DNA of 64,000 nt from a bacterium (GTDB lineage Bacteria > RUG730). The stretch covers positions 33,743-97,742 of the forward strand of contig JAVBNQ010000005.1 of NCBI GenBank assembly GCA_031551405.1, read 5' to 3'. Within the stretch, counting starts at the first letter, position 1. Each line of letters opens with the position of its first letter. The position numbers were made by a program, and so were the translations under genes. Shown in pieces: positions 18,071-57,335 of the stretch. The notes beneath the pieces are model-generated. The model was not told where the DNA came from, searched no databases, and saw only the letters and a list, made by a program, of their open reading frames with translations.

Positions 18071-18304
18071 CAAGTTGGGAAAATAACACAGACGTCATTA
18101 GCAAAAAAACAAAAATGTGAAAATTTTGTCATTGCATGTAACACAACGCCCGGAAACCAATCGCACCTTGAGCGAAACACAAGATCTGAAACTGAGATGC
18201 GTCGCTAGTTAAGAATGACGAAAGTGTACTCGTGATGGCTATTAATAAAACTTGGAATTATATTTACTACAACTCCACAACACTTTTTTTGTCTATTATT
18301 TTTC

Positions 18305-35500: not shown

Positions 35501-38500
35501 ACAGTGTCTGGCAGAGAAGTCAAAGTAAGTTTAGGTGATATTTTAGCGTCTCCAACAGCAATGAGAGAATTGAATATCCCAGAAAATCATAGAGCAACTT
35601 TACAAAAAATCATAGTAATAGATCATTACACTAATCCTGAAAGCGTGAGTGGTCTAGCAAAAAATACTTCAGCAAATGGCAATATTGTCTTTTCTACTGC
35701 AAAAGCAGGCAGAGGCATGGATTTTAGAGGAAAAATGCAATTACTAGTCACGGATGTTGATTCGCTTGCAAAAAATGATTTCCTACAAATATCCGGACGT
35801 GTTGGTCGCGGTGAGTCCAGAGATGTATTCCATAGAACAGTTCTAGTCAATCCTACTCAACTAAAATCTACTTTTACGGAACAAATTGAAATTTTGCAAC
35901 AAAAAAAAGAATTCATGCAAAGCAGTACTCTAGGGAAAGAATTTATCGAACAAGGAGGCGGCCTTAAAGCTCCTCCTGCAGATAGGCAAATTACTCAATC
36001 AGAACAAGCATTCAGGGCAGAGTGGACGGAATTACAAAGTAACTTAAAAAGTTTAAAAATATATGAGAAACAGCTTGATAAAGGATCATTTACGCAAGCG
36101 TCATCCGCAGAAATGATCCGAGCCAGCACAATAATACAAGGAGAATTTAAATCCAACGGAGCAGCTCTTTATCAAATAGGCGAAGGCGTCAGGTCAGCGA
36201 TCCTAAAAATTCCTCTTGAAAGGATGAAAGCCAAAGCTGAAGCTATGGGTAATACTCATGACGCAGCTTTGATCCAACGCATAATAGATGAAATGATCAG
36301 AACAAACAAAGGAGCTACGGCAGATGCTTTGATCTTGCAAGAGTCCGGATGGAAAAATCCAAAAGAAGTTTTTGAAAAAATGATGAAAGCAAATTACGAG
36401 GCTGCCATTCAAATTTATAAAATGTTAGATGCAGTAAGAATCACAGATCCAAAAAGCATGATGGAAAAAGTAGCTTCACCTATTACAAGAAAAGTAGCAA
36501 TAGGTGAATTCAATGTTGGGTTACAAGATCCAACATTATTAAGAGAAGTTAGAACTCGTGTTTTGGATTTAGAACAAGGGAAAATGGAAGTCCAAGCAAT
36601 AGGCAAAAGAGATTGGTATGAAACCAGAGCTAAAGCAACTGAAAAAGCTAAATCCGGACAACTGACTACTTTATCAGAAATTAATTCAATGGATAACCCT
36701 CAAATAAGTCGTCAAGTCTTGGAAACCGTAACTTATGTAGCGAAAGATTTGAATCCTCAACGGAAAACTACGGCATCAGACTCATACGCTCCAAAACAAA
36801 CCGTAAGAATAGCCAACCAGGCTCTTACCGGCGTAAAAGGGACAGAAGCCGTAAGGGTAAATACCAGTAATGCAGGACAGCTGGTATCGTCTTTGGAGCA
36901 TTACAAGACAAAAGGCGATAGAATAGGTGCCATTGTTTTGACTAATAGACAACTCATAGCATTACAGCAAGATCCGATTGCTTATAAAAGATTCCAAGCC
37001 GAAATTGTAGCTACTACAGATTGGAAACATGGAGTATTCGCAACAGGACAAGCTAAAATTTTAATAGCAGACAGTGATCAAGATATAACCAATGGAAGAG
37101 CCAAGACGCTAGAACAAGCACTTGGACAAGCACAAGCTCTTAAACCACCTATTGTAACAAATGCCACTCAAATAGTTCTAGGCAGCTCATCTCAAGATAA
37201 GAAAAAAGACAAAGATTTACAAAAACTTTTTGAAATTCAAACAAGAGATTTGCGAGCAGGTATTGACCCTAAGCTTTGGGATGATTTGGATACTAATCTA
37301 GAAATCGCTATTGATAAACAACGATTTGATGCAATGCCAGAAAAGGCGAGACAAGAATTTATAGCACAATTGGGACGAGAAGCGCAATTACGAAGTGAAC
37401 GCGCTAGGGACGCTGGTAAAGATACCGGTCAAGTAACCGCAGTTTTGAGAGAGGAGGTAGTGGATACGAGTCTTAAGGGAAATCAAATCGCAACTTCCGT
37501 GCTCAGTAAGCTCTCGACACAGCCTACTGTTAGATCCGAAGCTCTTGCGCTGTTAATAGAAGCTCAAGAATCAGAAATAGCCAGACTAGAAAAAGAAAAG
37601 GGAGCAGCATCAGACCTAGAAAGCTTAGGCCTTGAAGCTTTATTTAATGAAGAAGCGCTTGTTACTAAAAAAGATCTTGAAGCCAAAATACAAGACCTTA
37701 AAGTCGAAAGACAAAAACTACTTGCCCTAGAAACTGAGGTAAGAATATTCGAAACTATGGATAAAATAATAGACACAAAAACAAACAAACAAGAAGCTTT
37801 GGCTTTAACAAAAAAAGCTCAGACTTTACTTCCTCAATTGGCAGCACAAATGGATAGATTAAATGACGAAGCACAAGCTCTTCAGACGCAAGTTCAAGTT
37901 ATAGGCCAAGAACTTTTAGATCAAGGGAACTTGGCTGTTCTCGCTAATATTGTAAGAGGAGACCAAGCGCCTCAAATCATACAACAATATACAACCCTTA
38001 GAGACGATAAAAATGAAGCTTTAAAAGATAAATTGCTTGCAATCGCTAGAACTGCAGCCCCTACTGAACAATCTAAAGTTATGACGCATTCAACACTACT
38101 CATGACTACTGATGCTACTGTTAATGCCGGATATGCAAAAATAGAAGAACAATACAGAAAAGACGTATTCCCAGGCGTTTATCAGCCTACTGTAAATGCT
38201 GATGCTAATGCTACGACTTCACCTCAACAGCCCGTTGTAGTTCAAAATGCCAGATTAGACTTGGCTCAACCTGCGATACTCAAAGATGCAAAAGCAAAAC
38301 TTAAAAATGAAGCGGAAGGAAACAAATCTACCTCTAGCCAAGGACCATCAACTGCTGCTAAAACACAATACACTTCTCTCGTGACCATGGAAGTACGCGA
38401 CAAACTTTTAACAGAAACAGGAGTCAGTCAGCTAGAAATCGTTATAAGTACAGAAGTCCAAGACGCTGCTGAAAAAGCTCTAAGAGATGGCGTACAAAAA

Positions 38501-40768
38501 GCTAATGAAGAAACTCGACGCTATGTTACTTCATCTCCAAGACAAAGTTTACCAAAATCTCTGGTTGTAAAAAATTCTAAAGGAAAAATCGTAGATATTT
38601 ACGAATTAAGGAATGGTCAACTAGAAAGCAGAAACGCAGGAATCCAAAGTAGGCTTACTCGAGGCAAAGAAGACACTAGTGATCAAATGCAACAGCTGAT
38701 GGCTATGTTCGCGCAACAAGGTATGGCGCCTCCTGCTGGCTTGGGAGCTAACGGCGGAGTCGGTGAAATAAAAATTAAATCTTTTACATTTGGCAAAAAA
38801 TCCAAGCAACTAGAACAATTAATGAGTGAGCTCAGTAAACAGAAAAAAGATGGCTCAGTAACTATCGATTTAAGCGAAGTTGCTGACGAAAATGTAGAAG
38901 AATTCGTAAAAAGCGTTTATTCTGCGATATTCGAAGATCAAAACTTGCCAAGAAACGTTGTCTTCAAAAAAGGCAGTAAATATTTTGGAGCAACTGATGC
39001 TGATTTGAGAAATTACCTCGAAACCTGGAGTGGAGCTGAAAGAACTTTAGCTTTAGCGGACTCTGCATCATTATCATTTAGCAAGCAAAATCCGGACGTT
39101 CTTTTGCGAGAAGACACACTCAAGCCTAATTTAACTGATTCATATTTTGCAGAAAAACCTTTTAGACAAGAGGCTGATCAGGTCGCTCTTGCCAAAACAT
39201 ACGAAGGACGTGAATATTTCGACGGTAAAATAGAAATTGAAGGCGACAATGGTCCGACGACTAAAGCTTTATTCAAAAAAGACGTGACCGCAAACAAAGT
39301 TATAATAACTATTGATCCTGAAAACTTGAGATATTTTGGCGCTGAATATAATGCCCTCGAAAAATTCATAAAAGGTTTGCGGCAGATCGAGCTCGAATTC
39401 AAAGATTTAGGCAAAGATCTCGAGATAGTTATTCCAACGACAACTGACTCTTCTTTAACGGAAACTAGAGCAAATCTTGTAACAGCCTTAAAAACTTTTG
39501 TAGACGAATATAAAACTGATGCCAGAGAATTCAGGCTTCTAAATTCTGCAGGCAACTTACTTTTCACTAATAAGCCTGACAACTATGAAAAAACCACGTC
39601 TTTAAGCGTTGGTAAAAATGTTTTGGCTGTGCCGGAAACTGTTTTTTCTACTGACGCTGCTTTCAAAGCTTGGCTGCAAAACGCTCTCAAAACCGATGAA
39701 ATGAGAGCTCTCGACGAAAAAGGCGAAGGCGTAACTTTAGGCTTGGGCTCTGTTGAAAAGTTAACCGACGAAACTATACAAATGATTACAGAAGTTATTG
39801 CGAGGTCTTTCCCTGGAGAAAATGTAACTTTAGTCAATAAATTAGGGCAAGTAATAATTGACCCGGCTTCTCACCATGCCGTAACAAGTATTGCTGCACA
39901 ATCTTTAAGAATAACGAATGTACGATTGAATAAGCAAATTTTAAATATGCTCGACCAAAATAATATTGCTAATTTTACAAAAATCGAAATCTCTGAAGAA
40001 CTCGCAAATTCTCCTAGCGACATTTTACTTCTAACAAATTTTTTAACTCAAAAGGGTTTTAGCGGCGATGTAGTAGTAAAGACAAATTCCGGCGAAGTTA
40101 AAATTTGGAGAGAAGCATTGTTCGAAGCCGGCGCTATTGTAAAAGACGTAGGAAGCTTGGAAGACTTGAATAAGTTCCTCGCAACTTTGGACGAACAAGC
40201 TGCCAGCGTAGATTACACTAATTATTCTATAGTTTTGAATCTAAAATTCAGAGATAAATTTACTGACTGGAGCAAATTAAATGCTTTGATAAAAAGCGGC
40301 AAATTGAAAGATTTAACCATAACTCAACGTGGCCAAATCTTAGCGACTAATAACGCCAAAGTACAACAGTTCGTTAAACATTACGAAATCATCAGTCGTT
40401 CTCACGATATAAAACTAGAAACTTTGCGTAGCTACCAAGGCGAACTTCAACCTGTAAATGCTTCAGCTTTACAAAAAATTGATTTTGGAAAAATCGGTGG
40501 AGCAAGTACAACAGTTCAGCCAAACTTTAGTTTACCTGTTATCGCAGGAAGCGTTGTTGCTTCTTTCCAGGGAGCTGACGCATCTTTTGCTAAATATGTC
40601 ACTTACATGGGCAAATCTGACGTAACTCAAACTGCCAATTTTGCGGCGGAATTCAAAAAGAGTGTTCGCAGTTTGGGAGTTGAAGCCGGTCTAATCAGGC
40701 GAACTTCCGACGCTTTCCCTCGAACTACTGATACAGCGAACATGAGGCATTTGGATAGCGCTGCATAA
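26531..40768 (+). CDS. Giant protein (4,745 aa): signal peptide, coiled-coil region, hydrophobic/TM clusters, SF2 SecA/DEAD-like ATPase motifs, long C-terminal region
   Basis: Single uninterrupted ORF of 14,238 nt in an AT-rich genome; AGGGGG RBS; N-terminal hydrophobic signal-like segment; Walker A GMGGGKT (34094..34114), Walker B LAIDEAD (34427..34447), AGRGMD (35705..35722), QISGRVGRG (35786..35812); terminator hairpin downstream. Confidence 0.8.
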   Translation: MFIKNLKITKCLASFLVVTTFTCFILNDYTYAQTPAKILPSISELRKARGYDKTFTNIGFREEIAINQSADLYAKKMNTNYANQQTKIENNLKAKKESAWATAEKKTNEIKQTATLNREQLNVNYAKNLADYKSTYSVQKAKLASDFDIKVAQVDKNLARLRDVSAIAAKKIDTQSGINKIGSVVASGIMKPVQGIMSGLTSVVGFFSGKDNNPLTKINDKIQNIDKDLADLKNSKNDNMASIQKNTADQIKNLEKKKKDLLEAKSASLTNMDKRNDETLANMELSFKNEIEAVNNRENSYIASLVNSTTDELAKLDGEIKSRLEDLYTLTNSELENYLFGDDGLFKKAYEYDDKTALRNLKSDQDNSNREIQTDEKSGGYIGNLANYMGVEEQKRAFASNQYLEKAEKLLLSGASDGTRRAGEFAAAAGVVSKDAQVLMPRDFSDASLARSGAIELNMDQGEAAGTVRDNKVANIDASFLKSQQELADYSDSIVKYSDEVTGFLEDTINNFADNSKNEMNDFTNKTVKKNDEINQKEIQALLAFVKELQQYMDMVWPESQSAGYERATEALKEAAELYLNASIDTLAIILAVVLGIVGGLVATIIGAIFLITTGIPMIFSGILTPCGIVQVVAAVASLIIGITGVALGIWGIISAISEREQLKTALEIASNNVKVLNDLLPDPSKKDWPENTPSEYKVFMDAEKNYNSAMGQFKVMFFRRFGIEGLKKVRNKINQINRLLGKKGISGLTHDELLKLQELLFFFKPASNDKLLKRSMEGLKNTFKSYQEALENFKKSTKTVTYTLKELKDGSIVETTYTKTIWEAYQDKQFWGVVASELDMALNNAYVFDIDANGNVIKVDRSDGSTYTEEYKDPETGEWKTVTKKGWSGFANKASQSGDRFFSAINNGFTKFIDATDAFFSGVISGVIYGVTFGHVKVDKFPTWVKGITTFIPNFFKAIVDMTFMGYNLTLHLAKGLSQNGVLKGLQDFALGMASFPLGIIENAIGMKQGTFLDLFKGKTHSAKEIWGEGEYWNPGAAAGTLGFTIVMMMGSPSGASSIKAFVSNIKSALSSIWNAIKYVAVNGIWAGLKASFKVVGSALGKIINWTKSQFNFKTVLGNGFKAGVSAVLHNVLSGVKIGLGGLGIAAVAVLGAAGSIAGSIVFGLGKSLLTATKALATTASKYLKKFYKESSIKSLFKWASKQVTPRKSAGALLAAILLTPVLIVSHVLGITQAIKQLHTGFVGLRKEYKAMQKVYNSTGSYVQTRNGMPVNLRTQFIQNTISYGLQVPQVLINTVMSVALAPLLITSPLLFIGVKIGHVFWSEVILGQRKLRAMQKEQQKEQSRGAINSQKTQIESETNAQAVQASARNLRDHAKAFGIEVFDKTGKSLGVVSYKVFMEKMISGEISSFAVNQGGSKNAISLGIGAREALTRDYLASRDNASLTRLLARNNGNNKLEALVAAERVQRSTIILREYNAQRQKLTGQSAINFLEQMLNQNKLRSKVATSAQKAFLKMQNAAIKTELANLHAQALAARIEFLFSQSKLDPKIVELLDSNLGILDFSKIKAGGLTRNAAETLVRQMGDILGVVSKKYQESCSTGNKQIIKDSSSVVSARFKEIVNSEKFQEILKIASLAERQQKIMDYMKELKAVESATPPTALERLVIDRMTQVLRDNPSITPKQLAKMEVQLQKETVLALETGALVYNGFTSYNNIADGIKQLGVRPDLELNNQRKAVKATTALNEIEITAHHQTVVSQLNEIIAMKPELFSKNQGPAEGRIEARRKANSDFIASVREKYKNDPIGKILAKRLEFLLEINVYNNQGISAKDMKNFTSLLKEEVTFALKSGDIVPANGRFISQTQMEAYLKTFASEAELMRHAQETFKVQKQKEALDKKYEGKQFEKYSRSKRNAAQDLVKECLVIGNMGEKERQTAIEALQKQISDIKIERDTESPSMRKLLNRQVDALEMLVSSIKNNDVARIKEAVTAYFSKGGASSSVTAEAFVASIKSVITVTEAFAERVDQLSRISKDHEIHKADGKLSMQDFQKREVGAETKATLVILKAQLDALKDTSTRPISLETYKEYAALREKIEKSDAYKNATTEQRTAATTATTPHEILAAALNPLEAVTYNKLMEQFKGLDLKSEQSFRDSFNQAIREKINLFVAEAGSSMPVATIVDYLRGNRSRIPTDLMASLEQQIVNKLKGREAVTANDLTRDQALLGTLPQSSIREVLAARPDLHRLILQKEISYLQAKETVPAAVQEANRQVNETLSLTDAAALVKLKETIATISDPTLKKQITALIKGKELGKITFARLSELIEQTKSSPEATQALNLIVSRRMNQLQTYKNAAGSAQKSASNALIAEYKKLEDYIMKGVEKASAGYLEILNREHLPLMEKMYKIMEAAGIPKAEISTFDLSTGKIGDKTFYQKVQELASAKKLTSAEYIQRELFGENHQLTHLQADALRVVGLKLIEGHNKIGDGTITARTAALTDPNFNFTQKQILMMAANDQGMIAALGMGGGKTRVYPTVIGSMMQKGIGGGIGEILVSSKQEIANMLGNKDYMETFYGVKMLDGTKLHAENKLGETLASHKRDGIKVIVVFDLETRGHLSHEIRTNKSLQILDKIDILAIDEADALSLKQQSFINAERLPATDLIKNQVAKILETYEKLKGEGAEKFDAKKGGFADKTFLDAMLAELKTNAEFQKDQSSYLKKSLFSLSDKEWTGQTSAMITQVLRGRAEVLSGETKGGFKVDTVGGIQVGVQDGNNYNSVAVQIIDAFQKNAPQGVTFSIERFKTTTGASVSEFAATVSKTTVESAAQEILTRAPGVRLHVFGGSGTTGGAKRISEAVTAPVAEISEASFANYAFNTQVQKPGQRTTDVVAAFAGKALEGKWGRLIIQSQENLAENLLATIEKVAGPEAAAAFKNAASTSGKVERISDVQFAIEKLDSAFVDPVFIKGQGGGFISLNQAITDGLVRSNGKKFFETVSGREVKVSLGDILASPTAMRELNIPENHRATLQKIIVIDHYTNPESVSGLAKNTSANGNIVFSTAKAGRGMDFRGKMQLLVTDVDSLAKNDFLQISGRVGRGESRDVFHRTVLVNPTQLKSTFTEQIEILQQKKEFMQSSTLGKEFIEQGGGLKAPPADRQITQSEQAFRAEWTELQSNLKSLKIYEKQLDKGSFTQASSAEMIRASTIIQGEFKSNGAALYQIGEGVRSAILKIPLERMKAKAEAMGNTHDAALIQRIIDEMIRTNKGATADALILQESGWKNPKEVFEKMMKANYEAAIQIYKMLDAVRITDPKSMMEKVASPITRKVAIGEFNVGLQDPTLLREVRTRVLDLEQGKMEVQAIGKRDWYETRAKATEKAKSGQLTTLSEINSMDNPQISRQVLETVTYVAKDLNPQRKTTASDSYAPKQTVRIANQALTGVKGTEAVRVNTSNAGQLVSSLEHYKTKGDRIGAIVLTNRQLIALQQDPIAYKRFQAEIVATTDWKHGVFATGQAKILIADSDQDITNGRAKTLEQALGQAQALKPPIVTNATQIVLGSSSQDKKKDKDLQKLFEIQTRDLRAGIDPKLWDDLDTNLEIAIDKQRFDAMPEKARQEFIAQLGREAQLRSERARDAGKDTGQVTAVLREEVVDTSLKGNQIATSVLSKLSTQPTVRSEALALLIEAQESEIARLEKEKGAASDLESLGLEALFNEEALVTKKDLEAKIQDLKVERQKLLALETEVRIFETMDKIIDTKTNKQEALALTKKAQTLLPQLAAQMDRLNDEAQALQTQVQVIGQELLDQGNLAVLANIVRGDQAPQIIQQYTTLRDDKNEALKDKLLAIARTAAPTEQSKVMTHSTLLMTTDATVNAGYAKIEEQYRKDVFPGVYQPTVNADANATTSPQQPVVVQNARLDLAQPAILKDAKAKLKNEAEGNKSTSSQGPSTAAKTQYTSLVTMEVRDKLLTETGVSQLEIVISTEVQDAAEKALRDGVQKANEETRRYVTSSPRQSLPKSLVVKNSKGKIVDIYELRNGQLESRNAGIQSRLTRGKEDTSDQMQQLMAMFAQQGMAPPAGLGANGGVGEIKIKSFTFGKKSKQLEQLMSELSKQKKDGSVTIDLSEVADENVEEFVKSVYSAIFEDQNLPRNVVFKKGSKYFGATDADLRNYLETWSGAERTLALADSASLSFSKQNPDVLLREDTLKPNLTDSYFAEKPFRQEADQVALAKTYEGREYFDGKIEIEGDNGPTTKALFKKDVTANKVIITIDPENLRYFGAEYNALEKFIKGLRQIELEFKDLGKDLEIVIPTTTDSSLTETRANLVTALKTFVDEYKTDAREFRLLNSAGNLLFTNKPDNYEKTTSLSVGKNVLAVPETVFSTDAAFKAWLQNALKTDEMRALDEKGEGVTLGLGSVEKLTDETIQMITEVIARSFPGENVTLVNKLGQVIIDPASHHAVTSIAAQSLRITNVRLNKQILNMLDQNNIANFTKIEISEELANSPSDILLLTNFLTQKGFSGDVVVKTNSGEVKIWREALFEAGAIVKDVGSLEDLNKFLATLDEQAASVDYTNYSIVLNLKFRDKFTDWSKLNALIKSGKLKDLTITQRGQILATNNAKVQQFVKHYEIISRSHDIKLETLRSYQGELQPVNASALQKIDFGKIGGASTTVQPNFSLPVIAGSVVASFQGADASFAKYVTYMGKSDVTQTANFAAEFKKSVRSLGVEAGLIRRTSDAFPRTTDTANMRHLDSAA

Positions 40769-47252: not shown

Positions 47253-48032
47253 TTACTTAGAATTCAAAGTCATTTCTCGAATGATTAGGTCGGTAATGTC
47301 TGAGGCTTTGTCGGAATAAGCAAGATCGCTCTTGTCGAAAATAACGCTATATCCAAGCTTTTTTGCTATGAAATTTATGTTATCGTAAATTTTTCCCATC
47401 GTATTGTGCAAATATTTCTTCTCTAGCGTTTCTATTTCTTTCTCAACTTTTTTTTGATATTCGAGCAGTTCTTTTTTGCTTGTCTCGATTGATTTTTTCA
47501 AAACTTCCGGTTCAATTTTTTCAATTTCCGTACTTTTTTTAACGTCAAAACTATCGATACCTTGATTCAAAACTTCTTCTTTTTTTATTTCAGTTGAAAT
47601 TTTTACAGAATAATTTTCTGGCAAATCTTCAGTATTTTTTGTGCTTGTTGAGTCAGAAATTTCGAATGTTTCTTTTTTTGCGTCGGGAACTTCAGGTTTT
47701 TGAATTTCTACGTTTTTTGCCAAATTTTCAATTGTAGCAGTAGTCTTTTGCATTTCCTCTGAAACTTTTGTATTTTCCGTAGATTTTTCTACTTCAAAAA
47801 GTTTTGTATATTTTTTTTCCATTTCGTCTATTTGCGCTTGCTTAAATTCCAAACTTTTTCTGAGTTGAACTTTTTTTATCTCTAGATCTTTTTTTTGTTC
47901 TTTTGTTTTTGGGTACTCGTTAAAAATTTTTTTCATATCAACTACAGCAGTTTTTTCAGTATTTATCACTACAGCAAATAAAAAAGTATTACAAAAAAAC
48001 AAAAAAATTAACAAATTAATCCATTTTTTCAC
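47253..48032 (-). CDS. OmpH/Skp-like periplasmic chaperone (tentative)
   Basis: Signal peptide, long K/E-rich coiled-coil body, C-terminal ...GYSVIFDKSDLAYSDKASDITDLII resembling the OmpH family. Confidence 0.5.
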   Translation of the reverse strand: MKKWINLLIFLFFCNTFLFAVVINTEKTAVVDMKKIFNEYPKTKEQKKDLEIKKVQLRKSLEFKQAQIDEMEKKYTKLFEVEKSTENTKVSEEMQKTTATIENLAKNVEIQKPEVPDAKKETFEISDSTSTKNTEDLPENYSVKISTEIKKEEVLNQGIDSFDVKKSTEIEKIEPEVLKKSIETSKKELLEYQKKVEKEIETLEKKYLHNTMGKIYDNINFIAKKLGYSVIFDKSDLAYSDKASDITDLIIREMTLNSK

Positions 48033-48057: not shown

Positions 48058-49812
48058 TTAGGCTTTCAGTACAGCGCCTTGATCAGCGCTCGTTACTAGT
48101 TTCGAGTATCTAAGCAGCCAACCACGTTTTACTTTTGGCTCGAACTCTTTTAAATGCTGAAAACGCTTTTTTATTTCTTCGTCGGAAAGTAGTACGTTCA
48201 AGCTTTTCTTATTTATGTCAATCTCGATGATATCGCCATCTTGAAGAATTGCAATCTCTCCTTTTGCCGCAGCTTCAGGAGACACGTGGCCGATACAAAG
48301 TCCGCGAGTTCCTCCGGAAAATCTTCCGTCTGTGATTAGAGCAGCTTTGATTCCGGCGCCTTTGATAGCTGCCGTCGGAGAAAGCATTTCTTGCATTCCG
48401 GGTCCGCCTTTTGGTCCCTCGAATCGAATTATTACAGCGTCGCCATCTTTCACTTCTCCGGCAAGAATGCCTCTTATTGCGTCTTCTTGCGAGTCATAAA
48501 TTTTCGCTTTGCCTCGGAAATTAAACATATCTTTTTCAACGCCGGTCGTCTTCAAAACTGCGCCGTTTTTTGCAAAATTCCCAAACAAAATCACAAGCCC
48601 ACCTTGACTTGAAAATGCGTCTTTCACATTTTTTATAATTTTTCCGTCTGCTTCAGGCGACAACAAAACATAATCCTTCAATTTTCCGTAACAAGTCTTT
48701 TGCTCTAAATTCAAAAGTGACGCACTTTCCTCGAAAATTGTTTTGAGAATCGTGCCCATTCCGCCGACTTTTTGTAAATCCTCGATGTGAATATCAGGAT
48801 TCGACGGCGAAATTTTTACAATATTCGGCGTTTTCTCAGAAATTTCGTTCAGATATTTCAAATCATATTTTATTCCGGCCTCACTCGCTAAGGCCAATAG
48901 ATGCAAAACCGTGTTCGACGATCCACCAATTGCCATGTCAAGAACAAAAGCATTATCAATCGACTGTTTTGTGAGAATATCGAGAGGTTTCACGTTTTTT
49001 TTCATCAGATCAATCAGCGTGAATCCGGCTTTCTTGACGAGATCAACGCGGTCTGGATTAATTTCAAATTGTCTTATTTCGCCTTCCCTCTTTTTTGTCG
49101 CCGGAATCGTCCCGTTTTTCGGCAGAGCAAATCCCAACACTTCTCCGATACAATTCATCGTGTTTGCTGTGAACATTCCGGCGCAGCTTCCGTAACCCGG
49201 ACACGCCGTTTTAGCTAAATCTTCAAGCTCAGCGTCCGAAATTTTTCCGACTGCATTCACGCCGACTGCCTCGGACACAGAAATCAAATCTTTATTTTGG
49301 CAACTGGCGAGCATCGGTCCGCCGCTCACGTAAATCGACGGTATATTCAATCGCACCATCGCATTGTACATTCCCGGCACGATCTTGTCGCAATTTCCAA
49401 TCCCGATCCAACCGTCGCAAGGATGCGCAGAAATTATTGTTTCAATTTGATCTGTAATTAATTCTCTCGACGCTAACGAATATTTCATGCCGTAATGTCC
49501 CATCGCAATTCCATCACAAACTGCTCCTCCGATATTCGTGTACCAGACGTTTACGCCGAGACTTTCCAAGTATTCTTTCAAAATATAACCAAGCTTATCG
49601 AGGTGCGCGTGACCCGGAATTTGCGTTGAAAAAGAATTTACGATCGTCACAAACGGCTTTTCCAAATCTTCCTTTTTTTTGATAAATCCCTCGGCAAACA
49701 TCAAAGAAATATTAGGTAAAGTGTGTTTTGATTCTTTAAAAACTTTGCTGCCTTTTTTACGAACGTTTTCTATTCCGTCTTTTATAATTTCAGTCGCCAT
49801 TTTTTGCCTCAT
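48058..49812 (-). CDS. ilvD: Dihydroxy-acid dehydratase (IlvD/Edd family)
   Basis: 584 aa; IlvD/EDD family signatures including CDGxxxG (AVCDGIAMGH) and SGGPM regions. Confidence 0.85.
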   Translation of the reverse strand: MRQKMATEIIKDGIENVRKKGSKVFKESKHTLPNISLMFAEGFIKKKEDLEKPFVTIVNSFSTQIPGHAHLDKLGYILKEYLESLGVNVWYTNIGGAVCDGIAMGHYGMKYSLASRELITDQIETIISAHPCDGWIGIGNCDKIVPGMYNAMVRLNIPSIYVSGGPMLASCQNKDLISVSEAVGVNAVGKISDAELEDLAKTACPGYGSCAGMFTANTMNCIGEVLGFALPKNGTIPATKKREGEIRQFEINPDRVDLVKKAGFTLIDLMKKNVKPLDILTKQSIDNAFVLDMAIGGSSNTVLHLLALASEAGIKYDLKYLNEISEKTPNIVKISPSNPDIHIEDLQKVGGMGTILKTIFEESASLLNLEQKTCYGKLKDYVLLSPEADGKIIKNVKDAFSSQGGLVILFGNFAKNGAVLKTTGVEKDMFNFRGKAKIYDSQEDAIRGILAGEVKDGDAVIIRFEGPKGGPGMQEMLSPTAAIKGAGIKAALITDGRFSGGTRGLCIGHVSPEAAAKGEIAILQDGDIIEIDINKKSLNVLLSDEEIKKRFQHLKEFEPKVKRGWLLRYSKLVTSADQGAVLKA

Positions 49813-49869
49813 GTAATTTAAGATTTAGAGTATTGACTTTCGATTCCGCTAAGTCGCTGAACAATATAT

Positions 49870-50505
49870 TTATCTTGAACGAACAATATCTTTCACCTTC
49901 ATCAGCCGAGTTAAAGTCGATCGTTCAGCTTCTTCGATTTTACTCGAAATACTTTTGATTGTTTCAAGTAATGAAGGAACCATCGTATACTCGAGCGCAT
50001 TAACTCTACGACGCGTCTTTTCCATTTCACTTGCCAAAACATTCACTTTCATTTCCAGATCCGCAAGTTTTATCATCTCAAACAAAAGATTTGTTTCTTT
50101 CTCAATCGTGTTGTCGAATTCTTTTGAAAGATTAAAAAAACGTGTTTTAAGATTATTTTGAGATGCAGAATCTTCTTCTAACGAAATACTATAATTTTCA
50201 ACTTTGATTCCAACTAAATGATTTTCGCTTTTATCGAGTTTAATTTTTTTAAATGGAATCTTGAAAGCAGCTGATAACACATACGGAAGAGAAGTTGATT
50301 TTGAAATGACATAACTTTTTATTGCTTGGGCCAAAGAATCATCGATAATTTTTCTCTGCGCCTTCAAGTCCTCGACTAATCCCATAAAAACCCTGACCAG
50401 CTCATCCAATTTATCCTTCAAAAGCTTGTGCCCACGCCGAGCCATCACGAGTTTATTTTTTAAATTTATAAGCTCCATCCTAGTCGGATTAACGTTTAGC
50501 GCCAT
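49870..50505 (-). CDS. atpD: V-type ATPase subunit D
   Basis: 211 aa; N-terminus NPTRMELINLKNKLVMARRGHKLLKDKLDEL is the V/A-ATPase D signature. Confidence 0.85.
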   Translation of the reverse strand: MALNVNPTRMELINLKNKLVMARRGHKLLKDKLDELVRVFMGLVEDLKAQRKIIDDSLAQAIKSYVISKSTSLPYVLSAAFKIPFKKIKLDKSENHLVGIKVENYSISLEEDSASQNNLKTRFFNLSKEFDNTIEKETNLLFEMIKLADLEMKVNVLASEMEKTRRRVNALEYTMVPSLLETIKSISSKIEEAERSTLTRLMKVKDIVRSR

Positions 50506-50512
50506 TTTTTAC

Positions 50513-51883
50513 CTATTTTTTGAGATATTTTTCAACGAACTCGTCTTTAATACGCTTAAGCTCAGTTTTTGGTAAGCTGGCGAGCAATTCCCAGCCAATA
50601 TCGAGGGTTTCTTCAATATTACGATTTTCATATAAACCCTGTGTAATGAAATTCAACTCGAACTCATCTGAAAATTTCGCATAAATTTTGTCTAGATCAG
50701 TTAGCGCCGATTCCCCAAGGACAATCGCGAGTTCCTTTGCTTCTTTGCCTCGAGCGTACGCTCCGAAAAGCTGGCTAGTCATTTGAGCGTGATCTTCTCT
50801 AGTTTTTCCGTCCCCGATGCCTTTTTCTTTCAAACGTGATAAAGATGGCAAAACGTCAATGCTGGGACTTATGCCTCGTCGCATCAAATCTCGAGAAATA
50901 ATCACTTGTCCCTCAGTAATATAACCGGTCAAATCCGGAATCGGATGAGTTTTATCATCTTCAGGCATAGTCAAAATCGGCAAAAGCGTGATCGAGCCCT
51001 CGGTATTTTTCAGTCGCCCCGCTCGTTCGTACAAGCTTGACAAATCCGTATACATATAACCAGGATAACCTCGTCTTCCCGGAATCTCTTTTCGAGCAGC
51101 TGATACTTGCCTCAAAGCCTCGCAATAATTCGTCATATCCGTCAATATCACCAGAACATGCATTCCCTTATCAAACGCCAAATATTCTGCAGTTGAAAGC
51201 GTCATTCTGGGAGTAGCAATTCGCTCGATCGCCGGATCATTCGCCAGATTCAAGTACATAACAGATCTCGAAATTGCGCCCGTTTTGTTCAGCTCGTTTA
51301 TGAAATAATCCGACTCCTCGAACGTAATTCCCATTGCTCCAAAAACTACCGCGAATTTCTCGTCTTTCCCTCGAACTTTTGCCTGACGAGCGATCTGCGC
51401 TGCAAGCTCATTATGCGCCATTCCGGACCCTGAAAAAATCGGAAGTTTCTGCCCTCGCACTAAAGTTGTCATCGCGTCGATGCTAGAAATTCCTGTTTGA
51501 ATAAACTCTGACGGATAATTTCTTGCGCTTGGGTTAATCGGTAAACCGTTTATATCAACTTTTTTCTCAGGAATCAATGCCGGGCCGCCGTCTTTCGGCC
51601 TTCCAAGCCCGTCAAAAATTCGCCCGAGCATATCGCTTGATAGCGGAATTTCAATGCTTTTCCCAATAAAATTCACTCGGCTTCCTTTCAAATTTAAACC
51701 TGAGGTTCCCTCAAAAAGCTGTACCAGACATTTGTTCTCTGAAACTTCAAGAACTTGACCACGTCTCATCTCTCCATTTGCGAGTTTTATTTCTGCCACC
51801 TCGCCATAGCTCACATTATTCGTAGCCTCGACCAATATTAGCGGCCCGACGATAGCACTCAGTTCCGTGTATTCTTTTTTCAT
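50513..51883 (-). CDS. atpB: V-type ATPase subunit B (non-catalytic)
   Basis: 456 aa; alpha/beta ATPase fold sequence without a canonical P-loop ([18 protein letters not shown]). Confidence 0.85.
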
Positions 51884-51935
51884 TTTTGCCTCTCATCACA
51901 AAAAATTACAATTCTTAACTTCTAAATAAGTTCTC

Positions 51936-52895
51936 TTATCTACTGGAAAAACTATAATTTCCATCGAGATACGCATTTATTTTGCTTGTCACATCAAGCG
52001 CTAATTCCAGAGCATTTCTCCCGTGGATTCCGGAAACTTTCGGCTGTTTTCTATTTAAAACACAATTCACAAAATCCTCAAGTTCTAAAAAAAGAGGTTC
52101 ATTTTTTTTAGGAGAAAATTTCACAATTTTTATATCAGAAAAACTTTCGATTTTTTCCTTTTTTTTAGTAAATAATTTAAAAGATTGGCTTTCGTAATCG
52201 AGTGAAATATACGAGTTCTCACTGAAAATCCTAATTTTACGTAATTTTTCCATCGAAATCCTGCTCGCGGAAATATTTGCCACGCAACCGGTTTCGAATT
52301 TGAGTCGAACATTCGCGATGTCGTCGAAATCGGAAATCACTCTCGTCCCAATTGCGTCAACTGAAATTACTCGCGAATTTGTCAAAAACAAAACCATGTC
52401 TAGATCATGGACCATCAAATCGAGAACAACTCCGACATTTGTTGCTCTCTGGCTAAAAGTTCCAAGTCTATTAACCTCGATGTATTTTGGATTGTCAATA
52501 TATTTTTGAATTTCTATAATGGCTGGATTAAATCTCTCGATATGCCCGACTTGTAAGATCAAATCGTTTTTTGCAGCAATCTCTATCAGTTCATCGGCTT
52601 GTTCGAGAGTAGATGTAATCGGCTTTTCAATCAAACAATGGATCTTGTTTTCAAGAAAAAACTTACTTACTTCGAAATGCAGCGGCGTCGGAACAACAAT
52701 GCTTACAGCATCAATTTTTTCGAGCATTTCACGATAATCTTGGAAAAATTCCGCTTTGAAATTTTTCGCTATTTTTTCACCTTGAATTTTGTCGACGTCT
52801 GAAACTGCGACAAGATGTACATTTTTGAGATTTGCATAATTCCTGGCATGATGTTGCCCTAGACTCCCGACTCCGACTACTCCGACTCTCAGCAT
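51936..52895 (-). CDS. Gfo/Idh/MocA-family NAD-dependent oxidoreductase (GnnA-like candidate)
   Basis: N-terminal Rossmann motif VGVVGVGSLGQHH; 319 aa; immediately upstream of a DegT-type aminotransferase and the lpxI-lpxA pair. Confidence 0.75.
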   Translation of the reverse strand: MLRVGVVGVGSLGQHHARNYANLKNVHLVAVSDVDKIQGEKIAKNFKAEFFQDYREMLEKIDAVSIVVPTPLHFEVSKFFLENKIHCLIEKPITSTLEQADELIEIAAKNDLILQVGHIERFNPAIIEIQKYIDNPKYIEVNRLGTFSQRATNVGVVLDLMVHDLDMVLFLTNSRVISVDAIGTRVISDFDDIANVRLKFETGCVANISASRISMEKLRKIRIFSENSYISLDYESQSFKLFTKKKEKIESFSDIKIVKFSPKKNEPLFLELEDFVNCVLNRKQPKVSGIHGRNALELALDVTSKINAYLDGNYSFSSR

Positions 52896-53980
52896 AATTG
52901 GAATCCTTTAATACAATTTGTAACTGCTTCCAAATCCTCTGATCGAAGCTTCGTGTGAATAGGCAAACAAACGACTTCTTTGGCAATTCTCGAAGCGACT
53001 GGACAATCAAAAAACTCGACCTCACGATAAAAAGTCTGCTCGTGAACTGGAATTGGATAAATTGGAGCTGCGTTTATTCCGTTTTCATTCAGGTAAGCCA
53101 GGAATTTATCTCGGTATTTTTCGTTAATTCTAAGCGTAAATTGATGAAAAACGTGTTTTGCATTCGCATTTTCCGTCGGTAAAGTAAGCCAGTCTAGACC
53201 TTCCAAATTTTTTAGATAAAATTCTGCGTTTTTCTTACGTTTCTGCGTAAATTCTTCTAGCCTCGAAAGCTGAACAATTCCGATCGCAGCTTGCATATCC
53301 GTAAGCCTAAAATTGTAACCCAATTCCGAATGAGAAAATCTGCCGCTTCGGCCATGATTGATGAGAGATCTTATTTTTTCAGCCAATACGTCGTTATTCG
53401 TCGTTATCATTCCGCCTTCGCCTGTCATCATATTTTTAGTCGCATAAAAACTGAAAGTACCAAATTCGCCAAAACTTCCGACCTTATTTCCTTTATAGCT
53501 TGCGTCAACAGCCTGCGCACAGTCCTCGAAAATTTTGACATTATACTTTTGCGACAGATACAAAAACGCGTCCATATCACACGGATTCCCGTATAAATGA
53601 ACTAGCAAAATTGCTTTTATATTTTTTTGTTTTTTTAGGATTTCTTCGACGTGATTTGGGTCGAGATTGAAAGTTTTTTCGTCAATATCAGCAAAAACAA
53701 CTTTTCCATCGCAAAATAAGATGGAGTTCGATGTAGCGATAAAAGTAAATGGCGTTGTTGCGACTTTATCGCCTGGATTTATCCCGGCAGCCAGGAGTCC
53801 CGCGTGAAGAGCGGTTGTGCCGTTTGAGACGCAAATCGAATGTTTGACTCCATTAAATTCGCAAAATTTTTGTTCAAACTCTTTAACTTTAGGTCCACTC
53901 GCCAAAATGCCGCTTTCCAAGACTTGCATTACAGCGTCTTTCTCGAGGTTCGTAATGTCAGGTTTTGATAAATCGATCAT
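52889..53980 (-). CDS. DegT/DnrJ/EryC1/StrS-family PLP-dependent aminotransferase (GnnB-like candidate)
   Basis: 363 aa; family-typical sequence including FSFYATKNMMTGEGG with the putative PLP lysine. Confidence 0.8.
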   Translation of the reverse strand: MIDLSKPDITNLEKDAVMQVLESGILASGPKVKEFEQKFCEFNGVKHSICVSNGTTALHAGLLAAGINPGDKVATTPFTFIATSNSILFCDGKVVFADIDEKTFNLDPNHVEEILKKQKNIKAILLVHLYGNPCDMDAFLYLSQKYNVKIFEDCAQAVDASYKGNKVGSFGEFGTFSFYATKNMMTGEGGMITTNNDVLAEKIRSLINHGRSGRFSHSELGYNFRLTDMQAAIGIVQLSRLEEFTQKRKKNAEFYLKNLEGLDWLTLPTENANAKHVFHQFTLRINEKYRDKFLAYLNENGINAAPIYPIPVHEQTFYREVEFFDCPVASRIAKEVVCLPIHTKLRSEDLEAVTNCIKGFQLC

Positions 53981-54784
53981 TTAAACTCCATAAACCGCGA
54001 TATTATTATCGTCGGCAATTTTCAAACATTCATCTTTATCGAAAAACAAAGTCTTCCCGGCTTCAAAACAAATGCAAGCTGCGCCGACTTTTTGCAATAT
54101 TTCAAACGTTTTTTTCCCAACAACAGGAACATCAAATCTCTCATCTTGATTCGGTTTATTTACCTTTGCAACGACAATTTCTTTTCCAGCAAGCTTGTAA
54201 GCTCGCAAAATACATTCATCAGTTCCTTCGAGCCCTTCGACTGCTACAACAGCTTTGTCTTTCACAACTACGGTTTGTCCGATATCAAGCCCAGCGATTT
54301 TTTTCGCAGTCTCTAAGCCAAACAAAATATCTTCAAAAACTTGTTCCGAGACTTTTTTACTCGTCAGAAAACCTGTTGATTTCGGCAACCATTTTCCCAT
54401 AAAAGTTATTGACGAAATGAGCTCAATGCCTTCCTTCGAAAGCTCAGTAGCTACTGCTCCCAAAATACTGTCAGTTTTTTTATTCGCGATTGTTGCAAGC
54501 AGTTTTATAGCGCGGAAATCGAGTTTTATCTCAGTAAAAAGCTTAGTGTGAATTACTTGTCCGCACATTATTGCTTTTGTGACGTTATTTTTTTTTATTA
54601 TCTCTATGATCGTGTTTAACTTTCCGATGTTTGACCAAAAAACTTTATATCCAAAATTTTCGATTTTTTCGTCGGTTTCGCCTTTTAACGCAATTATTAT
54701 CAAATCTTGATTATTGTTTTTTGCCTCGCTCAGAAACAAAAACGGAAAATTTCCATTGCCGGCTATGAGAGCCAATTTTTCCAT
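53981..54784 (-). CDS. lpxI: LpxI-like protein (DUF1009; UDP-2,3-diacylglucosamine hydrolase candidate)
   Basis: 267 aa; N-terminus LALIAGNGNFP... and overall size resemble LpxI; immediately downstream of lpxA. Confidence 0.55.
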   Translation of the reverse strand: MEKLALIAGNGNFPFLFLSEAKNNNQDLIIIALKGETDEKIENFGYKVFWSNIGKLNTIIEIIKKNNVTKAIMCGQVIHTKLFTEIKLDFRAIKLLATIANKKTDSILGAVATELSKEGIELISSITFMGKWLPKSTGFLTSKKVSEQVFEDILFGLETAKKIAGLDIGQTVVVKDKAVVAVEGLEGTDECILRAYKLAGKEIVVAKVNKPNQDERFDVPVVGKKTFEILQKVGAACICFEAGKTLFFDKDECLKIADDNNIAVYGV

Positions 54785-54787
54785 AAA

Positions 54788-55561
54788 CTAATCTCTCGTA
54801 ATTCCTCGTTTAGAATTTTTGATGAAATTGATAAAATGCTTTACTTCGTCCGACTCAAAATCCAGGTTGTCCAATTCTGAAAGAGCCTGACTCATAAGTT
54901 TTTTTGACTCAAAAATAATTTTGTAAGCTTTTTTCAGCTCGGAAATAGTCTCGTCTGATATATTTCTTCTCGCTAACCCGATGGAATTTAAACCATAATT
55001 TTTTGCAGGGCTTCCGGCGATTTTACAAAAAGGCGGAACATCCTGTGAAATTCTGCTCGCACCGCCGACAATTGCATGTTTCCCGACTCTAACGAACTGA
55101 TGAATCGGTGTTAGGCCACCGACTATTGCAAAATCCTCGATTTCAACGTGACCGGCCAAAGTCGCATTATTTGCAAGAATGGCATGATCACCGATTATAC
55201 AGTCGTGCGCGACGTGAACATAAGCCATCAAAAGTATTCCATTTCCAATTTTTGTTTCGCCTGCTGCTATAGTTCCTCGATTTATCGTTACATATTCGCG
55301 AATTGTGCAATTATTGCCTATCGAGACTGCAGTCGGTTCATTTCTGTATTTTAGGTCTTGCGGTTCAGTACCGATAATCGCGCCAGTGAAAATCCTGCAT
55401 TTTTTGCCGATTTTCGTGTGTCCATCTATTACAACATTAGCGCCCACTTCAGTCTCATCGTCGATTTTTACGTTTGCGCCAATTATTGCGTTAGGTCCAA
55501 TTTTTACATTTTGACCAAGAATTGCTTTCTCGTCAATGATTGCAGTTTTATGAATTAACAT
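54788..55561 (-). CDS. lpxA: Acyl-[ACP]--UDP-N-acetylglucosamine O-acyltransferase
   Basis: Left-handed beta-helix hexapeptide repeats; start moved to ATG 55561 (MLIHKTAIID..., AGGAG upstream) instead of the track start at 55600. Confidence 0.85.
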   Translation of the reverse strand: MLIHKTAIIDEKAILGQNVKIGPNAIIGANVKIDDETEVGANVVIDGHTKIGKKCRIFTGAIIGTEPQDLKYRNEPTAVSIGNNCTIREYVTINRGTIAAGETKIGNGILLMAYVHVAHDCIIGDHAILANNATLAGHVEIEDFAIVGGLTPIHQFVRVGKHAIVGGASRISQDVPPFCKIAGSPAKNYGLNSIGLARRNISDETISELKKAYKIIFESKKLMSQALSELDNLDFESDEVKHFINFIKNSKRGITRD

Positions 55562-55612
55562 TTTTTTATTTTTCTCCTCTAATTTTTCAAAAAACAACAT
55601 TTAAAAAATATT

Positions 55613-56077
55613 TTAACTTAAAAATTTCCTTTTTGAAACAAAAAAATCTTTCAGCAAATCTTCGCATTTTTGTTGCATTATTCCGGATTTTACCTCGATT
55701 TTATGGTTAAAACTTTTATGTTCACAAAAAGAAAAAAGTGATTCTACGCTTCCAACCTTTGGATCAAATGCTCCGAAAACAAGACGCTTTATCCGAGCCA
55801 GCACGAGCGAATATGCGCACATCGGACAAGGCTCGAGAGTCGTGTAAAGTGAGCATTCGTTCAAGCGATAATTTTTCAGATATTTCGAGGCATTTCGAAG
55901 GGCAATTATTTCGGCGTGAGCAGTAACGTCAGCATCCAAAATACTTTGGTTATGTCCGCGAGCGATTATCTTCGATTCAAAAACAACTATGCTCCCGACT
56001 GGAACCTCGCCATTTTCCCAGGCTTTTAAAGCTTCGTTATACGCTTCATTCATAAAAAATTCATCAAGATTTTTCAT
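55613..56077 (-). CDS. tadA: tRNA-specific adenosine deaminase
   Basis: 154 aa; CDA zinc-binding motifs HAEIIALR and PCPMCA. Confidence 0.85.
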   Translation of the reverse strand: MKNLDEFFMNEAYNEALKAWENGEVPVGSIVVFESKIIARGHNQSILDADVTAHAEIIALRNASKYLKNYRLNECSLYTTLEPCPMCAYSLVLARIKRLVFGAFDPKVGSVESLFSFCEHKSFNHKIEVKSGIMQQKCEDLLKDFFVSKRKFLS

Positions 56078-56216
56078 ATGTCTATCGTCATATTTTATAA
56101 AATGTTGGATTTTACATTATTTAAAATTTTTTGGCAAATATAACTTTTAAATTAACGAAATTTTGTATATAATTCAAAAAATTTAATAGCGAGGATCGTC
56201 TTCAAAAATAAAAATT

Positions 56217-57335
56217 ATGGACAAACCTACTTCAAAATATACTTTCGATAAATTTGTACGAATAATTTTCACAACGGCAATTTTAATTTGTTTGTATTTT
56301 TTGCTAAAATATTTGAGTCCGGTTTTAATCCCATTTGTTGTAGCCTTGCTCTTAGCGTACCTCATAAATCCTGTAATAGTTTTCTTTGAAAAACACGTAA
56401 AAAGCCGTGTACTTGCAGTCTGGATCACAATATTCTTATTGCTTCTCATAACTTTATTTGCGATTTTGGTGATAATCCCGCAGATTTCCAAAGAATTAAC
56501 GCAAACTTACACTTTCGTGAATAATTTACTGGAAAATCAAGCTATTCTCGATCACAAGGATTCCAAATATAATCTCATTTCCTTCTTTTGGACAAAAGTT
56601 CAAAACTTCCTCCAGCGCGACGAAATCAAAATTATTACCAAAGTTGAAAGTTTTAAAGTCCTTTTAAACGAGCTCAGCAAGTCCGTTTTCCCAACTGTAA
56701 TATCGATATTCAATGGCGCGCTCAGCTTAGTCGGATTCATTTTGAGCCTATGTTTGGTTTTATTGTATTTAACGTTCATGATGTTTGGCTTCAATCAACT
56801 AAAATACGAATGGCAAACTCTAATTCCAGAAAATTACAGGCAAAAAGTTTTAGATTTCATACGTACTTTCAACACTTCAATGAATAATTATTTCCGAGGA
56901 CAAACGTTAGTTGCTCTTTGCGTTGGGATTTTATTTTCGATAGGTTTTATTATCCTAAAACTTCCTATGGCGCTAATTCTCGGTATTTTTTTTGGAATTT
57001 TAAACATCATTCCGTATATGCAAGTTTTTGGTTATTTACCAGCTGTAATTCTCTCCATCTTAAAGTCAATCAACACCGGCATGCCTATCTGGAAATCGAT
57101 TGCTTTAACTTTTTTGTCAATAATAATCGTCCAAATTATTCAAGATACTATTTTAGTGCCTAGAATCGTCAGAAAAACGACCGGACTCCATCCCGTCATG
57201 ATAATTTTATCGCTTTCTGTCTGGGGCAGACTTTTCGGATTTTTAGGGTTTTTAATAGCAATCCCGTTCACGTGTTTGCTTTTAGAGTATTACAATAAAA
57301 TCATAAACAAAAAATCTTCAATTGAGTCGAGGTAA
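56217..57335 (+). CDS. AI-2E family transporter (PerM-like membrane protein)
   Basis: 372-aa multi-pass membrane protein with AI-2E/UPF0118 family topology. Confidence 0.7.
   Translation: MDKPTSKYTFDKFVRIIFTTAILICLYFLLKYLSPVLIPFVVALLLAYLINPVIVFFEKHVKSRVLAVWITIFLLLLITLFAILVIIPQISKELTQTYTFVNNLLENQAILDHKDSKYNLISFFWTKVQNFLQRDEIKIITKVESFKVLLNELSKSVFPTVISIFNGALSLVGFILSLCLVLLYLTFMMFGFNQLKYEWQTLIPENYRQKVLDFIRTFNTSMNNYFRGQTLVALCVGILFSIGFIILKLPMALILGIFFGILNIIPYMQVFGYLPAVILSILKSINTGMPIWKSIALTFLSIIIVQIIQDTILVPRIVRKTTGLHPVMIILSLSVWGRLFGFLGFLIAIPFTCLLLEYYNKIINKKSSIESR

Follow-up and report, generated by a model that had tools for sequence, protein, structure and literature searches.

Lipid A built on 2,3-diamino-2,3-dideoxyglucose (GlcN3N) carries primary acyl chains that are amide-linked instead of ester-linked, and the LpxA step in its synthesis is chemically different. 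In Acidithiobacillus ferrooxidans, the GlcN3N precursor is made by GnnA and GnnB (PMC8036547), a 3-dehydrogenase and a DegT-type aminotransferase that are encoded beside lpxA within the lipid A cluster in the order lpxA-gnnA-gnnB-lpxB. In Capnocytophaga canimorsus and Campylobacter jejuni, which have a hybrid GlcN3N-GlcN lipid A, gnnA and gnnB likewise lie beside ordinary lipid A genes (PMC3342949, PMC8036547); when gnnA/gnnB are inactivated in C. jejuni, TLR4 activation and the response to antimicrobial peptides change (PMC8036547), and C. canimorsus has two lpxA genes, to which its authors tied the hybrid backbone (PMC3342949). Similar chemistry occurs in the pathways of 2,3-diacetamido sugars, including WbpB/WbpE/WbpD of Pseudomonas, WlbA/C/B of Bordetella and the archaeal pathways, in which C3 oxidation by a Gfo/Idh/MocA enzyme is followed by transamination dependent on pyridoxal 5′-phosphate (PLP). 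The present analysis concerns a locus of four genes, lpxA-lpxI-degT-gnnA, in a stretch of 64,000 nucleotides (hereafter, the window; contig JAVBNQ010000005.1) from an uncultivated Elusimicrobiota bacterium, represented by a metagenome-assembled genome. The host was placed in this phylum because nearly every named close homolog of its oxidoreductase comes from a metagenome-assembled genome of Elusimicrobiota. The locus is likely to be a segment of a lipid A pathway that produces GlcN3N-containing lipid A via UDP-GlcNAc3N, the 3-amino form of uridine diphosphate (UDP)-N-acetylglucosamine (UDP-GlcNAc).

An initial annotation had listed lpxA, an lpxI-like gene, a DegT-family aminotransferase gene and a Gfo/Idh/MocA oxidoreductase gene in this order on the minus strand, and had taken the presence of GnnA- and GnnB-like genes beside lipid A genes to suggest UDP-GlcNAc3N and GlcN3N lipid A. 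All four genes are present according to the open reading frames (ORFs) and family scans, and that suggestion is the best-supported reading after testing. The locus resembles that of A. ferrooxidans in placing a 3-dehydrogenase gene and a DegT aminotransferase gene beside lpxA in a lipid A cluster, in having an oxidoreductase of the same clade as A. ferrooxidans GnnA (AfGnnA), and in having an LpxA that is 51% identical to the A. ferrooxidans protein. By contrast, its gene order is different (lpxA-lpxI-degT-gnnA), it includes LpxI with no adjacent lpxB, and its aminotransferase comes from another DegT lineage than A. ferrooxidans GnnB (AfGnnB).

Gene identities were obtained from the ORF listing together with NCBIfam and Pfam scans and PDB sequence comparison. 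The four genes lie on the minus strand: lpxA at 54788–55600 when counted from its first ATG (270 amino acids; acyl-ACP:UDP-GlcNAc(3N) acyltransferase, where ACP is acyl carrier protein), lpxI at 53981–54784 (267 amino acids; UDP-2,3-diacylglucosamine pyrophosphatase), the gene of a DegT/DnrJ/EryC1/StrS PLP aminotransferase at 52889–53980 (363 amino acids; PF01041, 413 bits; predicted UDP-3-keto-GlcNAc 3-aminotransferase) and the gnnA-family oxidoreductase gene at 51936–52895 (319 amino acids; predicted UDP-GlcNAc 3-dehydrogenase). They belong to one unbroken minus-strand string in the ORF listing, which runs from tadA to the gene for subunit D of a V-type ATPase (V-ATPase). At the junctions, the stop codon TAA of lpxI directly abuts the ATG of the DegT gene, and the stop codon TGA of the DegT gene overlaps the ATG of the oxidoreductase gene as ATGCTGA; the DegT and oxidoreductase genes are thus translationally coupled, and the DegT gene is coupled to lpxI. 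A scan of 49500–56600 for promoters and terminators returned counts at shuffle expectation (21 vs. 18.4 and 7 vs. 6.7, respectively) and is therefore uninformative on the limits of the operon.

The oxidoreductase is a two-domain Gfo/Idh/MocA protein with an NAD-binding Rossmann N-terminal domain (NAD, nicotinamide adenine dinucleotide), as recognized by PF01408 (112 bits) and PF22725 (the C3 domain, 49 bits). Of the NCBIfam models, NF040723 for the archaeal UDP-GlcNAc 3-dehydrogenase scores highest (274 bits, short of its cutoff of 450), a likeness to the archaeal 2,3-diacetamido pathway. Among all PDB sequences, its best match is 7bvj, the GnnA of Acidithiobacillus (E = 3.8e-60), which leads the next structure, an inositol dehydrogenase (E = 3.4e-21), by some 40 orders of magnitude; structures of WbpB and WlbA are absent from its PDB matches at E ≤ 1e-10. 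The paper on the 7bvj structure is that of Manissorn et al. (2020), as it appears in the references of PMC9636410. The 7bvj sequence is 98–99% identical to Acidithiobacillus proteins, and the Acidithiobacillus locus that encodes a 7bvj-like protein (L001; such handles denote the surveyed loci) reads bamA-skp-lpxD-fabZ-lpxA-[Gfo]-[DegT]-lpxB, the order of gnnA and gnnB known from A. ferrooxidans (Sweet et al., 2004, as cited in PMC3342949). Identity between the window protein and AfGnnA is 35% over 310 residues. An alignment of 12 sequences, from Elusimicrobia, Acidithiobacillus, Desulfuromonas, Magnetococcus and others, contains 43 invariant positions, and all 43 are kept in the window protein, including the GxGxxG glycines of the NAD loop, E90-K91-P92 and H163-D164.

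The phylogenetic placement of the oxidoreductase agrees with these matches. In a neighbor-joining tree of 128 oxidoreductase proteins calculated with Kimura distances, the proteins from lipid A contexts, AfGnnA and the window protein among them, all fall into a single clade with 70% bootstrap support, or 83% when the small triad group L107–111 is counted in, and the oxidoreductases of glycan-type triads (class 2, described below) fall outside it. Profile hidden Markov models (HMMs) lead to the same division: the window protein scores 418 bits on the lipid-A-context model built from non-Elusimicrobia loci and 330 bits on the class-2 glycan model, a margin of 88 bits, as compared with 311 and 207 bits for AfGnnA. 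By these sequence comparisons, the oxidoreductase truly belongs to the GnnA family and shares a clade with AfGnnA, and it is predicted to oxidize UDP-GlcNAc at C3 with NAD+.

The gene neighborhood recurs in other bacteria. A scan with the 12-sequence alignment, with one genome per species, yielded 80 loci spread over many phyla, among them Elusimicrobiota, Omnitrophota, Verrucomicrobiota, Desulfobacterota, Nitrospirota, Acidobacteriota, Planctomycetota, KSB1, and Gammaproteobacteria, and the ORFs of each locus were matched to the window proteins and to BamA, Skp, LpxD, FabZ, LpxA, GnnA, GnnB, and LpxB of Acidithiobacillus. Genes of the lpx series lie within 3.5 kb of the GnnA homolog in 67 of the 80 loci, usually as lpxD-fabZ-lpxA-lpxI-gnnA-lpxB or gnnA-lpxB, and a DegT gene neighbors the GnnA homolog in only 11. 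The initial annotation considered the use of LpxI to be notable; outside the beta- and gamma-proteobacteria, LpxI is the enzyme normally used, and since it neighbors the GnnA homolog at 22 of these 80 other-species loci, its presence here is ordinary.

A second scan, of metagenomes with the window DegT protein, returned 80 loci whose DegT proteins are at most 52% identical to it, and two classes of context were distinguished. In class 1, the genes are arranged as lpxD-fabZ-lpxA(-lpxA)-lpxI-DegT-GnnA-lpxB, and GnnA is 49–52% identical to the window protein; the string lpxA-lpxI-DegT-Gfo-lpxB is present in at least six metagenome loci (e.g., L087, L089, L096, L099, and L105), L084 has the class-1 string as far as DegT, and L006, which is labeled Endomicrobium sp., was grouped with class 1. 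In class 2, the DegT gene is accompanied by a more distant Gfo oxidoreductase (about 30–42% identity) and a hexapeptide protein of 190–200 amino acids; Pfam identifies Hexapep acetyltransferases, the Hexapep proteins of this class being 195–202 amino acids long, and in the two loci checked a protein of the UDP-glucose/GDP-mannose-dehydrogenase family occurs in L108 and a GT4 glycosyltransferase in L098. The class-2 gene set is that of the 2,3-diacetamido-sugar pathways, in which UDP-GlcNAc(A) is oxidized and aminated at C3 and then N-acetylated. Closer to the window, L166 (62% identity in GnnA and 68% in DegT) encodes lpxL, lptC and an lptB-like ABC ATPase, followed by tadA-lpxA-lpxI-DegT-GnnA as in the window. 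Because the string recurs in L166 and in at least six metagenome loci, the order lpxA-lpxI-DegT-Gfo is no chance juxtaposition, and because the proteins of the relatives share only about 50% identity, it must have persisted through much evolutionary divergence.

The two remaining genes of the segment encode lipid A enzymes. LpxA is identified by the NCBIfam equivalog NF003657 (369 bits; cutoff 226), by TIGR01852 (342 bits; cutoff 231), and by the Pfam domains Acetyltransf_11 and Hexapep. A ribosome-binding site, GAGGAG, lies 12 nucleotides upstream of the second ATG at 55561, which coincides with the end coordinate of the initial annotation, is probably the true start and gives 257 amino acids, as in the relatives L164 and L166. 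The catalytic and substrate-binding positions checked in LpxA are all retained: Q73, D74, K76, H122, H125, D126, H144, H160, Q161, G173, N198, and R204 (E. coli numbering). LpxI is recognized by LpxI_N (118 bits) and LpxI_C (158 bits) and aligns end to end (residues 1–267) with Caulobacter crescentus LpxI (4ggm, E = 7e-24). As it falls below the NCBIfam equivalog cutoff (134.5 vs. 400 bits), its function is assigned on the Pfam domains, the PDB match and the gene context, and it is, by its sequence, a divergent member of the family.

Two lpxA genes in tandem precede lpxI-DegT-gnnA-lpxB in the Endomicrobia-like loci L087 (3356–5087), L089 (3417–5022), and L099 (3430–5108), with K in the first copy and S in the second at E. 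coli position 76. In gene number these loci are like Capnocytophaga, whereas the window has a single lpxA. By analogy with the proposal for Capnocytophaga, the tandem copies may divide their labor between UDP-GlcNAc and UDP-GlcNAc3N.

The aminotransferase has the PLP fold and the active-site lysine; the lysine in its FSFYATK motif occupies the position of the SK/TK lysine in every reference. Its relationships were analyzed in a tree built as for the oxidoreductases, with 100 bootstrap replicates, from 97 DegT proteins together with WbpE, QdtB, DesV, 7b0d, perosamine synthetase, and E. coli ArnB; AfGnnB was the sole characterized GnnB among the references, those of C. jejuni, Leptospira, and Mesorhizobium having been left out. 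The window protein groups with those of L166 and L165 in 100% of replicates, and this group belongs to a larger Elusimicrobia clade with lpx-linked members (74% bootstrap), which in turn is nested among the class-2 triad proteins.

Several observations weigh against the production of GlcN3N lipid A by this segment. The window DegT protein lies outside the clade of AfGnnB-type proteins, WbpE, QdtB, DesV, and 7b0d in 89 of 100 bootstraps and is 38% identical to AfGnnB, whereas gnnA-adjacent DegT proteins of Geobacter, Desulfuromonadales, Syntrophaceae, Nitrospirae, and Gammaproteobacteria are 49–55% identical to AfGnnB and 37–42% identical to the window protein. Following its PLP lysine, the loop reads TKNMMTGEGG in place of the PSKNLGxxGDGG of the classic clade; in the window-type lineage as a whole, this loop reads TKNM(M/T)TGEGG, is one residue shorter than the classic one, and resembles those of perosamine synthetase and ArnB. 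On the AfGnnB-type HMM the protein scores 365 bits, a deficit of about 130 bits to the window-type models (497 bits on the glycan-triad model and 500 bits on the Endomicrobia lpx-linked model). LpxA, for its part, is closer to E. coli LpxA (1.8e-73) than to the UDP-GlcNAc3N-specific LpxA of Leptospira (4e-57), and it has K76 where A. ferrooxidans LpxA has G76; nothing in its sequence points to a preference for the amino sugar. Furthermore, gnnA is not followed by lpxB in the window, the genes of V-ATPase subunits B and D standing there instead, and no chemical data on the lipid A of Elusimicrobiota were present among the top-ranked papers of a literature search. Two close relatives add to these points. 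L164 (64% identity in GnnA) has tadA-lpxA-lpxI-GnnA without DegT, and L165, which carries the nearest DegT-GnnA pair (63% and 71% identity, respectively), has no lpx gene on its 7.9-kb contig.

From the aminotransferase comparisons, the window DegT protein is, as far as sequence can tell, not an ortholog of AfGnnB, and the name GnnB is used here for functional analogy. The initial annotation had proposed phylogenetic placement relative to characterized GnnA and GnnB as the check, and the outcome is divided: the oxidoreductase was placed with AfGnnA and its lipid-A-cluster homologs, and the aminotransferase outside the AfGnnB clade. Because of that exclusion, the different motif and the HMM deficit, the substrate of the aminotransferase is deduced from context only. 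One alternative is that the DegT protein acts at another position of the sugar (e.g., C4, like perosamine synthetase, PseC, or ArnB) and that the oxidoreductase has a different role in lipid A without transamination. The PDB ranking of the window protein, in which 7b0d is first, perosamine synthetase is second (250 bits) and QdtB follows, is in its favor, as is the TGEGG motif, which fits perosamine synthetase and ArnB and not the C3 enzymes WbpE, QdtB, and DesV; for AfGnnB, 7b0d is followed by the C3 aminotransferases DesV, QdtB, and WbpE. PseC and LegC are the top NCBIfam families of the window protein, all below their cutoffs, but PseC is also first for genuine AfGnnB, so that this ranking does not discriminate and was set aside.

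The alternative also draws on the 57 of 80 GnnA-family loci that have lpx neighbors and no adjacent DegT gene. In these, either the partner is encoded elsewhere or the enzymes have an undescribed role; Mesorhizobium loti, which makes GlcN3N lipid A, illustrates the former, since its assigned gnnA (mll2825) and gnnB (mll7579) are unlinked (PMC7663294), and a lone gnnA in the cluster is thus no argument against transamination. A C4 aminotransferase, moreover, needs a 4-keto sugar, and neither a 4,6-dehydratase nor another 4-oxidizing enzyme is encoded nearby; the only adjacent oxidase belongs to the GnnA clade, whose characterized member makes a 3-keto sugar, and the steady partners of the DegT lineage, a Gfo oxidoreductase and a small acetyltransferase, fit known C3 pathways. 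Action at another position is accordingly considered very improbable. Despite its separate ancestry, the window DegT protein most likely does the job of GnnB, and its C3 regiochemistry would follow from its coupling to gnnA, the association of its lineage with C3 pathways, and the lack of a 4-keto-forming enzyme in the neighborhood.

A different role for the whole pair is raised by the contexts of close relatives. In L165 (2531–6834), the DegT-GnnA pair is followed by two GT2 glycosyltransferases, and a 534-amino-acid protein without a Pfam match also flanks it. The contexts of L164 and L165 indicate that, in this lineage, the position of the pair with respect to the lpx genes shifts. This mobility is the main evidence for the view that the UDP-GlcNAc3N of the pair, or a 2,3-diamino sugar modified further, is destined for a surface glycan (e.g., an O-antigen, a capsule or a protein glycan), the vicinity of the pair to lpxA-lpxI being accidental or reflecting a shared use of UDP-GlcNAc. 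The window-type DegT lineage fits that view in being found mostly in triads with a small acetyltransferase, with the 6-dehydrogenase or GT4 protein of the two loci checked. However, the NCBIfam and Pfam scans revealed no small N-acetyltransferase, UDP-sugar 6-dehydrogenase or glycosyltransferase in the window cluster, which in these respects differs from the 2,3-diacetamido pathways; WbpE of Pseudomonas itself belongs to the other DegT clade. The only left-handed-helix acyltransferase adjoining the pair in the window is LpxA, and the sole Hexapep protein found in the window is this full-length LpxA with its Acetyltransf_11 C-terminal domain.

Further points also oppose a glycan role. The window oxidoreductase groups with lipid-A-cluster enzymes, apart from those of the glycan triads. 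The lpxA-lpxI-DegT-GnnA(-lpxB) string, as described above, is shared with divergent relatives, and the pair is translationally coupled to lpxI. A glycan role is therefore regarded as unlikely, though less so than action at another position of the sugar. Clustering with O-antigen sugar-modifying paralogs had been named in the initial annotation as evidence that would speak against GlcN3N; the oxidoreductase stands apart from the glycan-cluster enzymes, and for the aminotransferase the picture is mixed, the other members of its lineage occurring in di-N-acetyl-sugar triads and the window protein itself belonging to the lpx-embedded Elusimicrobia subclade.

For the preferred reading, a GlcN3N-type lipid A pathway, the following course is proposed. 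The GnnA-family enzyme, on the basis of its orthology to a characterized enzyme, would oxidize the 3-hydroxyl group of UDP-GlcNAc with NAD+ to yield UDP-3-keto-GlcNAc, and the adjacent PLP-dependent DegT protein would transaminate C3 to give UDP-GlcNAc3N. LpxA would then acylate the new 3-amine with an R-3-hydroxyacyl chain taken from ACP, so that an amide stands in place of the ester. After the LpxC and LpxD steps, LpxI would cleave the UDP-diacyl sugar to an analogue of lipid X, and the units would be condensed by LpxB, presumably encoded elsewhere: no further lpx gene was found among the scanned window ORFs, and lpxB, lpxC, and lpxD are not in the window. The product would be a lipid A with a GlcN3N backbone, either full or as a GlcN3N/GlcN hybrid.

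The behavior of LpxA bears on the choice between the two backbones. The LpxA of E. coli reportedly acylates UDP-GlcNAc and UDP-GlcNAc3N at comparable rates, whereas the enzymes of Leptospira and Mesorhizobium are said to require the amino sugar and that of A. ferrooxidans to prefer it. If comparable rates hold for an E. coli-type LpxA, the supply of UDP-GlcNAc3N by the DegT-GnnA pair would decide the backbone, and a mixed or hybrid backbone, as in C. canimorsus and C. jejuni, would be possible. As to the origin of the pathway, it is tentatively suggested, at somewhat less than even chances, that Elusimicrobia assembled it independently, by keeping or acquiring a lipid-A-cluster GnnA and recruiting the aminotransferase from the 2,3-diacetamido-sugar lineage, a non-orthologous displacement of GnnB; GnnA-family genes lie between lpxA/lpxI and lpxB in several phyla.

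The surroundings of the segment are as follows. Upstream in the string, tadA (55613–56077, minus strand) encodes a tRNA adenosine-34 deaminase of 154 amino acids (NF008113, 175 bits; cutoff 150); it is a neighbor and has no functional part in the pathway. Directly downstream of gnnA, where the relatives have lpxB, is a V-ATPase B-D pair (49870–51883, minus strand) consisting of subunit B (50513–51883; 456 amino acids, 772 bits) and subunit D (49870–50505; 211 amino acids); no V-ATPase A, E, I, K or other subunit was found among the scanned window ORFs, and the pair appears detached from the other genes of the complex. An OmpH/Skp-like gene (47253–48032, minus strand) has ilvD on one side and hrcA on the other, with neither bamA nor lpxD close by; its product of 259 amino acids is about 90 residues longer than a typical Skp, with the OmpH domain confined to residues 129–254. 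The region 10819–23874 (minus strand), which looks like an adhesin or autotransporter island, contains a run of Chlamydia-PMP-repeat proteins of 2328 amino acids (10819–17805) and 951 amino acids (19372–22227), two shorter overlapping PMP-repeat ORFs at 22530–23874 that may be one disrupted gene, and a separate autotransporter beta-domain protein of 362 amino acids (18305–19393). On the plus strand, a single ORF of 4745 amino acids (26531–40768) matches no Pfam family at E ≤ 1e-3, and a 250-amino-acid ORF ahead of it (25765–26517) is likewise without a Pfam match; GC and AT skew are positive in the region of the large ORF, opposite to the surroundings. The remaining window contains housekeeping genes, including hrcA-grpE-dnaK-dnaJ, ilvD, purH, ahcY, obg, and others, and Rfam detects one tRNA only.

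GlcN3N synthesis is a familiar pathway, and finding it in a further phylum is unsurprising; judging from the top-ranked papers of the literature search, the prediction is new for Elusimicrobiota but modest. The lipid A of the host probably carries extra amide-linked fatty acids. In the known cases, GlcN3N lipid A is accompanied by weak stimulation of TLR4 and a changed sensitivity to cationic peptides (PMC8036547), and the prediction gives those who isolate lipopolysaccharide from Elusimicrobium or Endomicrobium a structure to search for. Annotators can recognize GnnA by homology, but GnnB is not callable from A. ferrooxidans homology alone. On a related and equally tentative reading, amide-rich GlcN3N lipid A would be common across uncultivated Gram-negative phyla and not a scattered oddity, given the GnnA-family genes that lpxA/lpxI and lpxB enclose in Verrucomicrobiota, Omnitrophota, Desulfobacterota, Nitrospirota, Acidobacteriota, and others.

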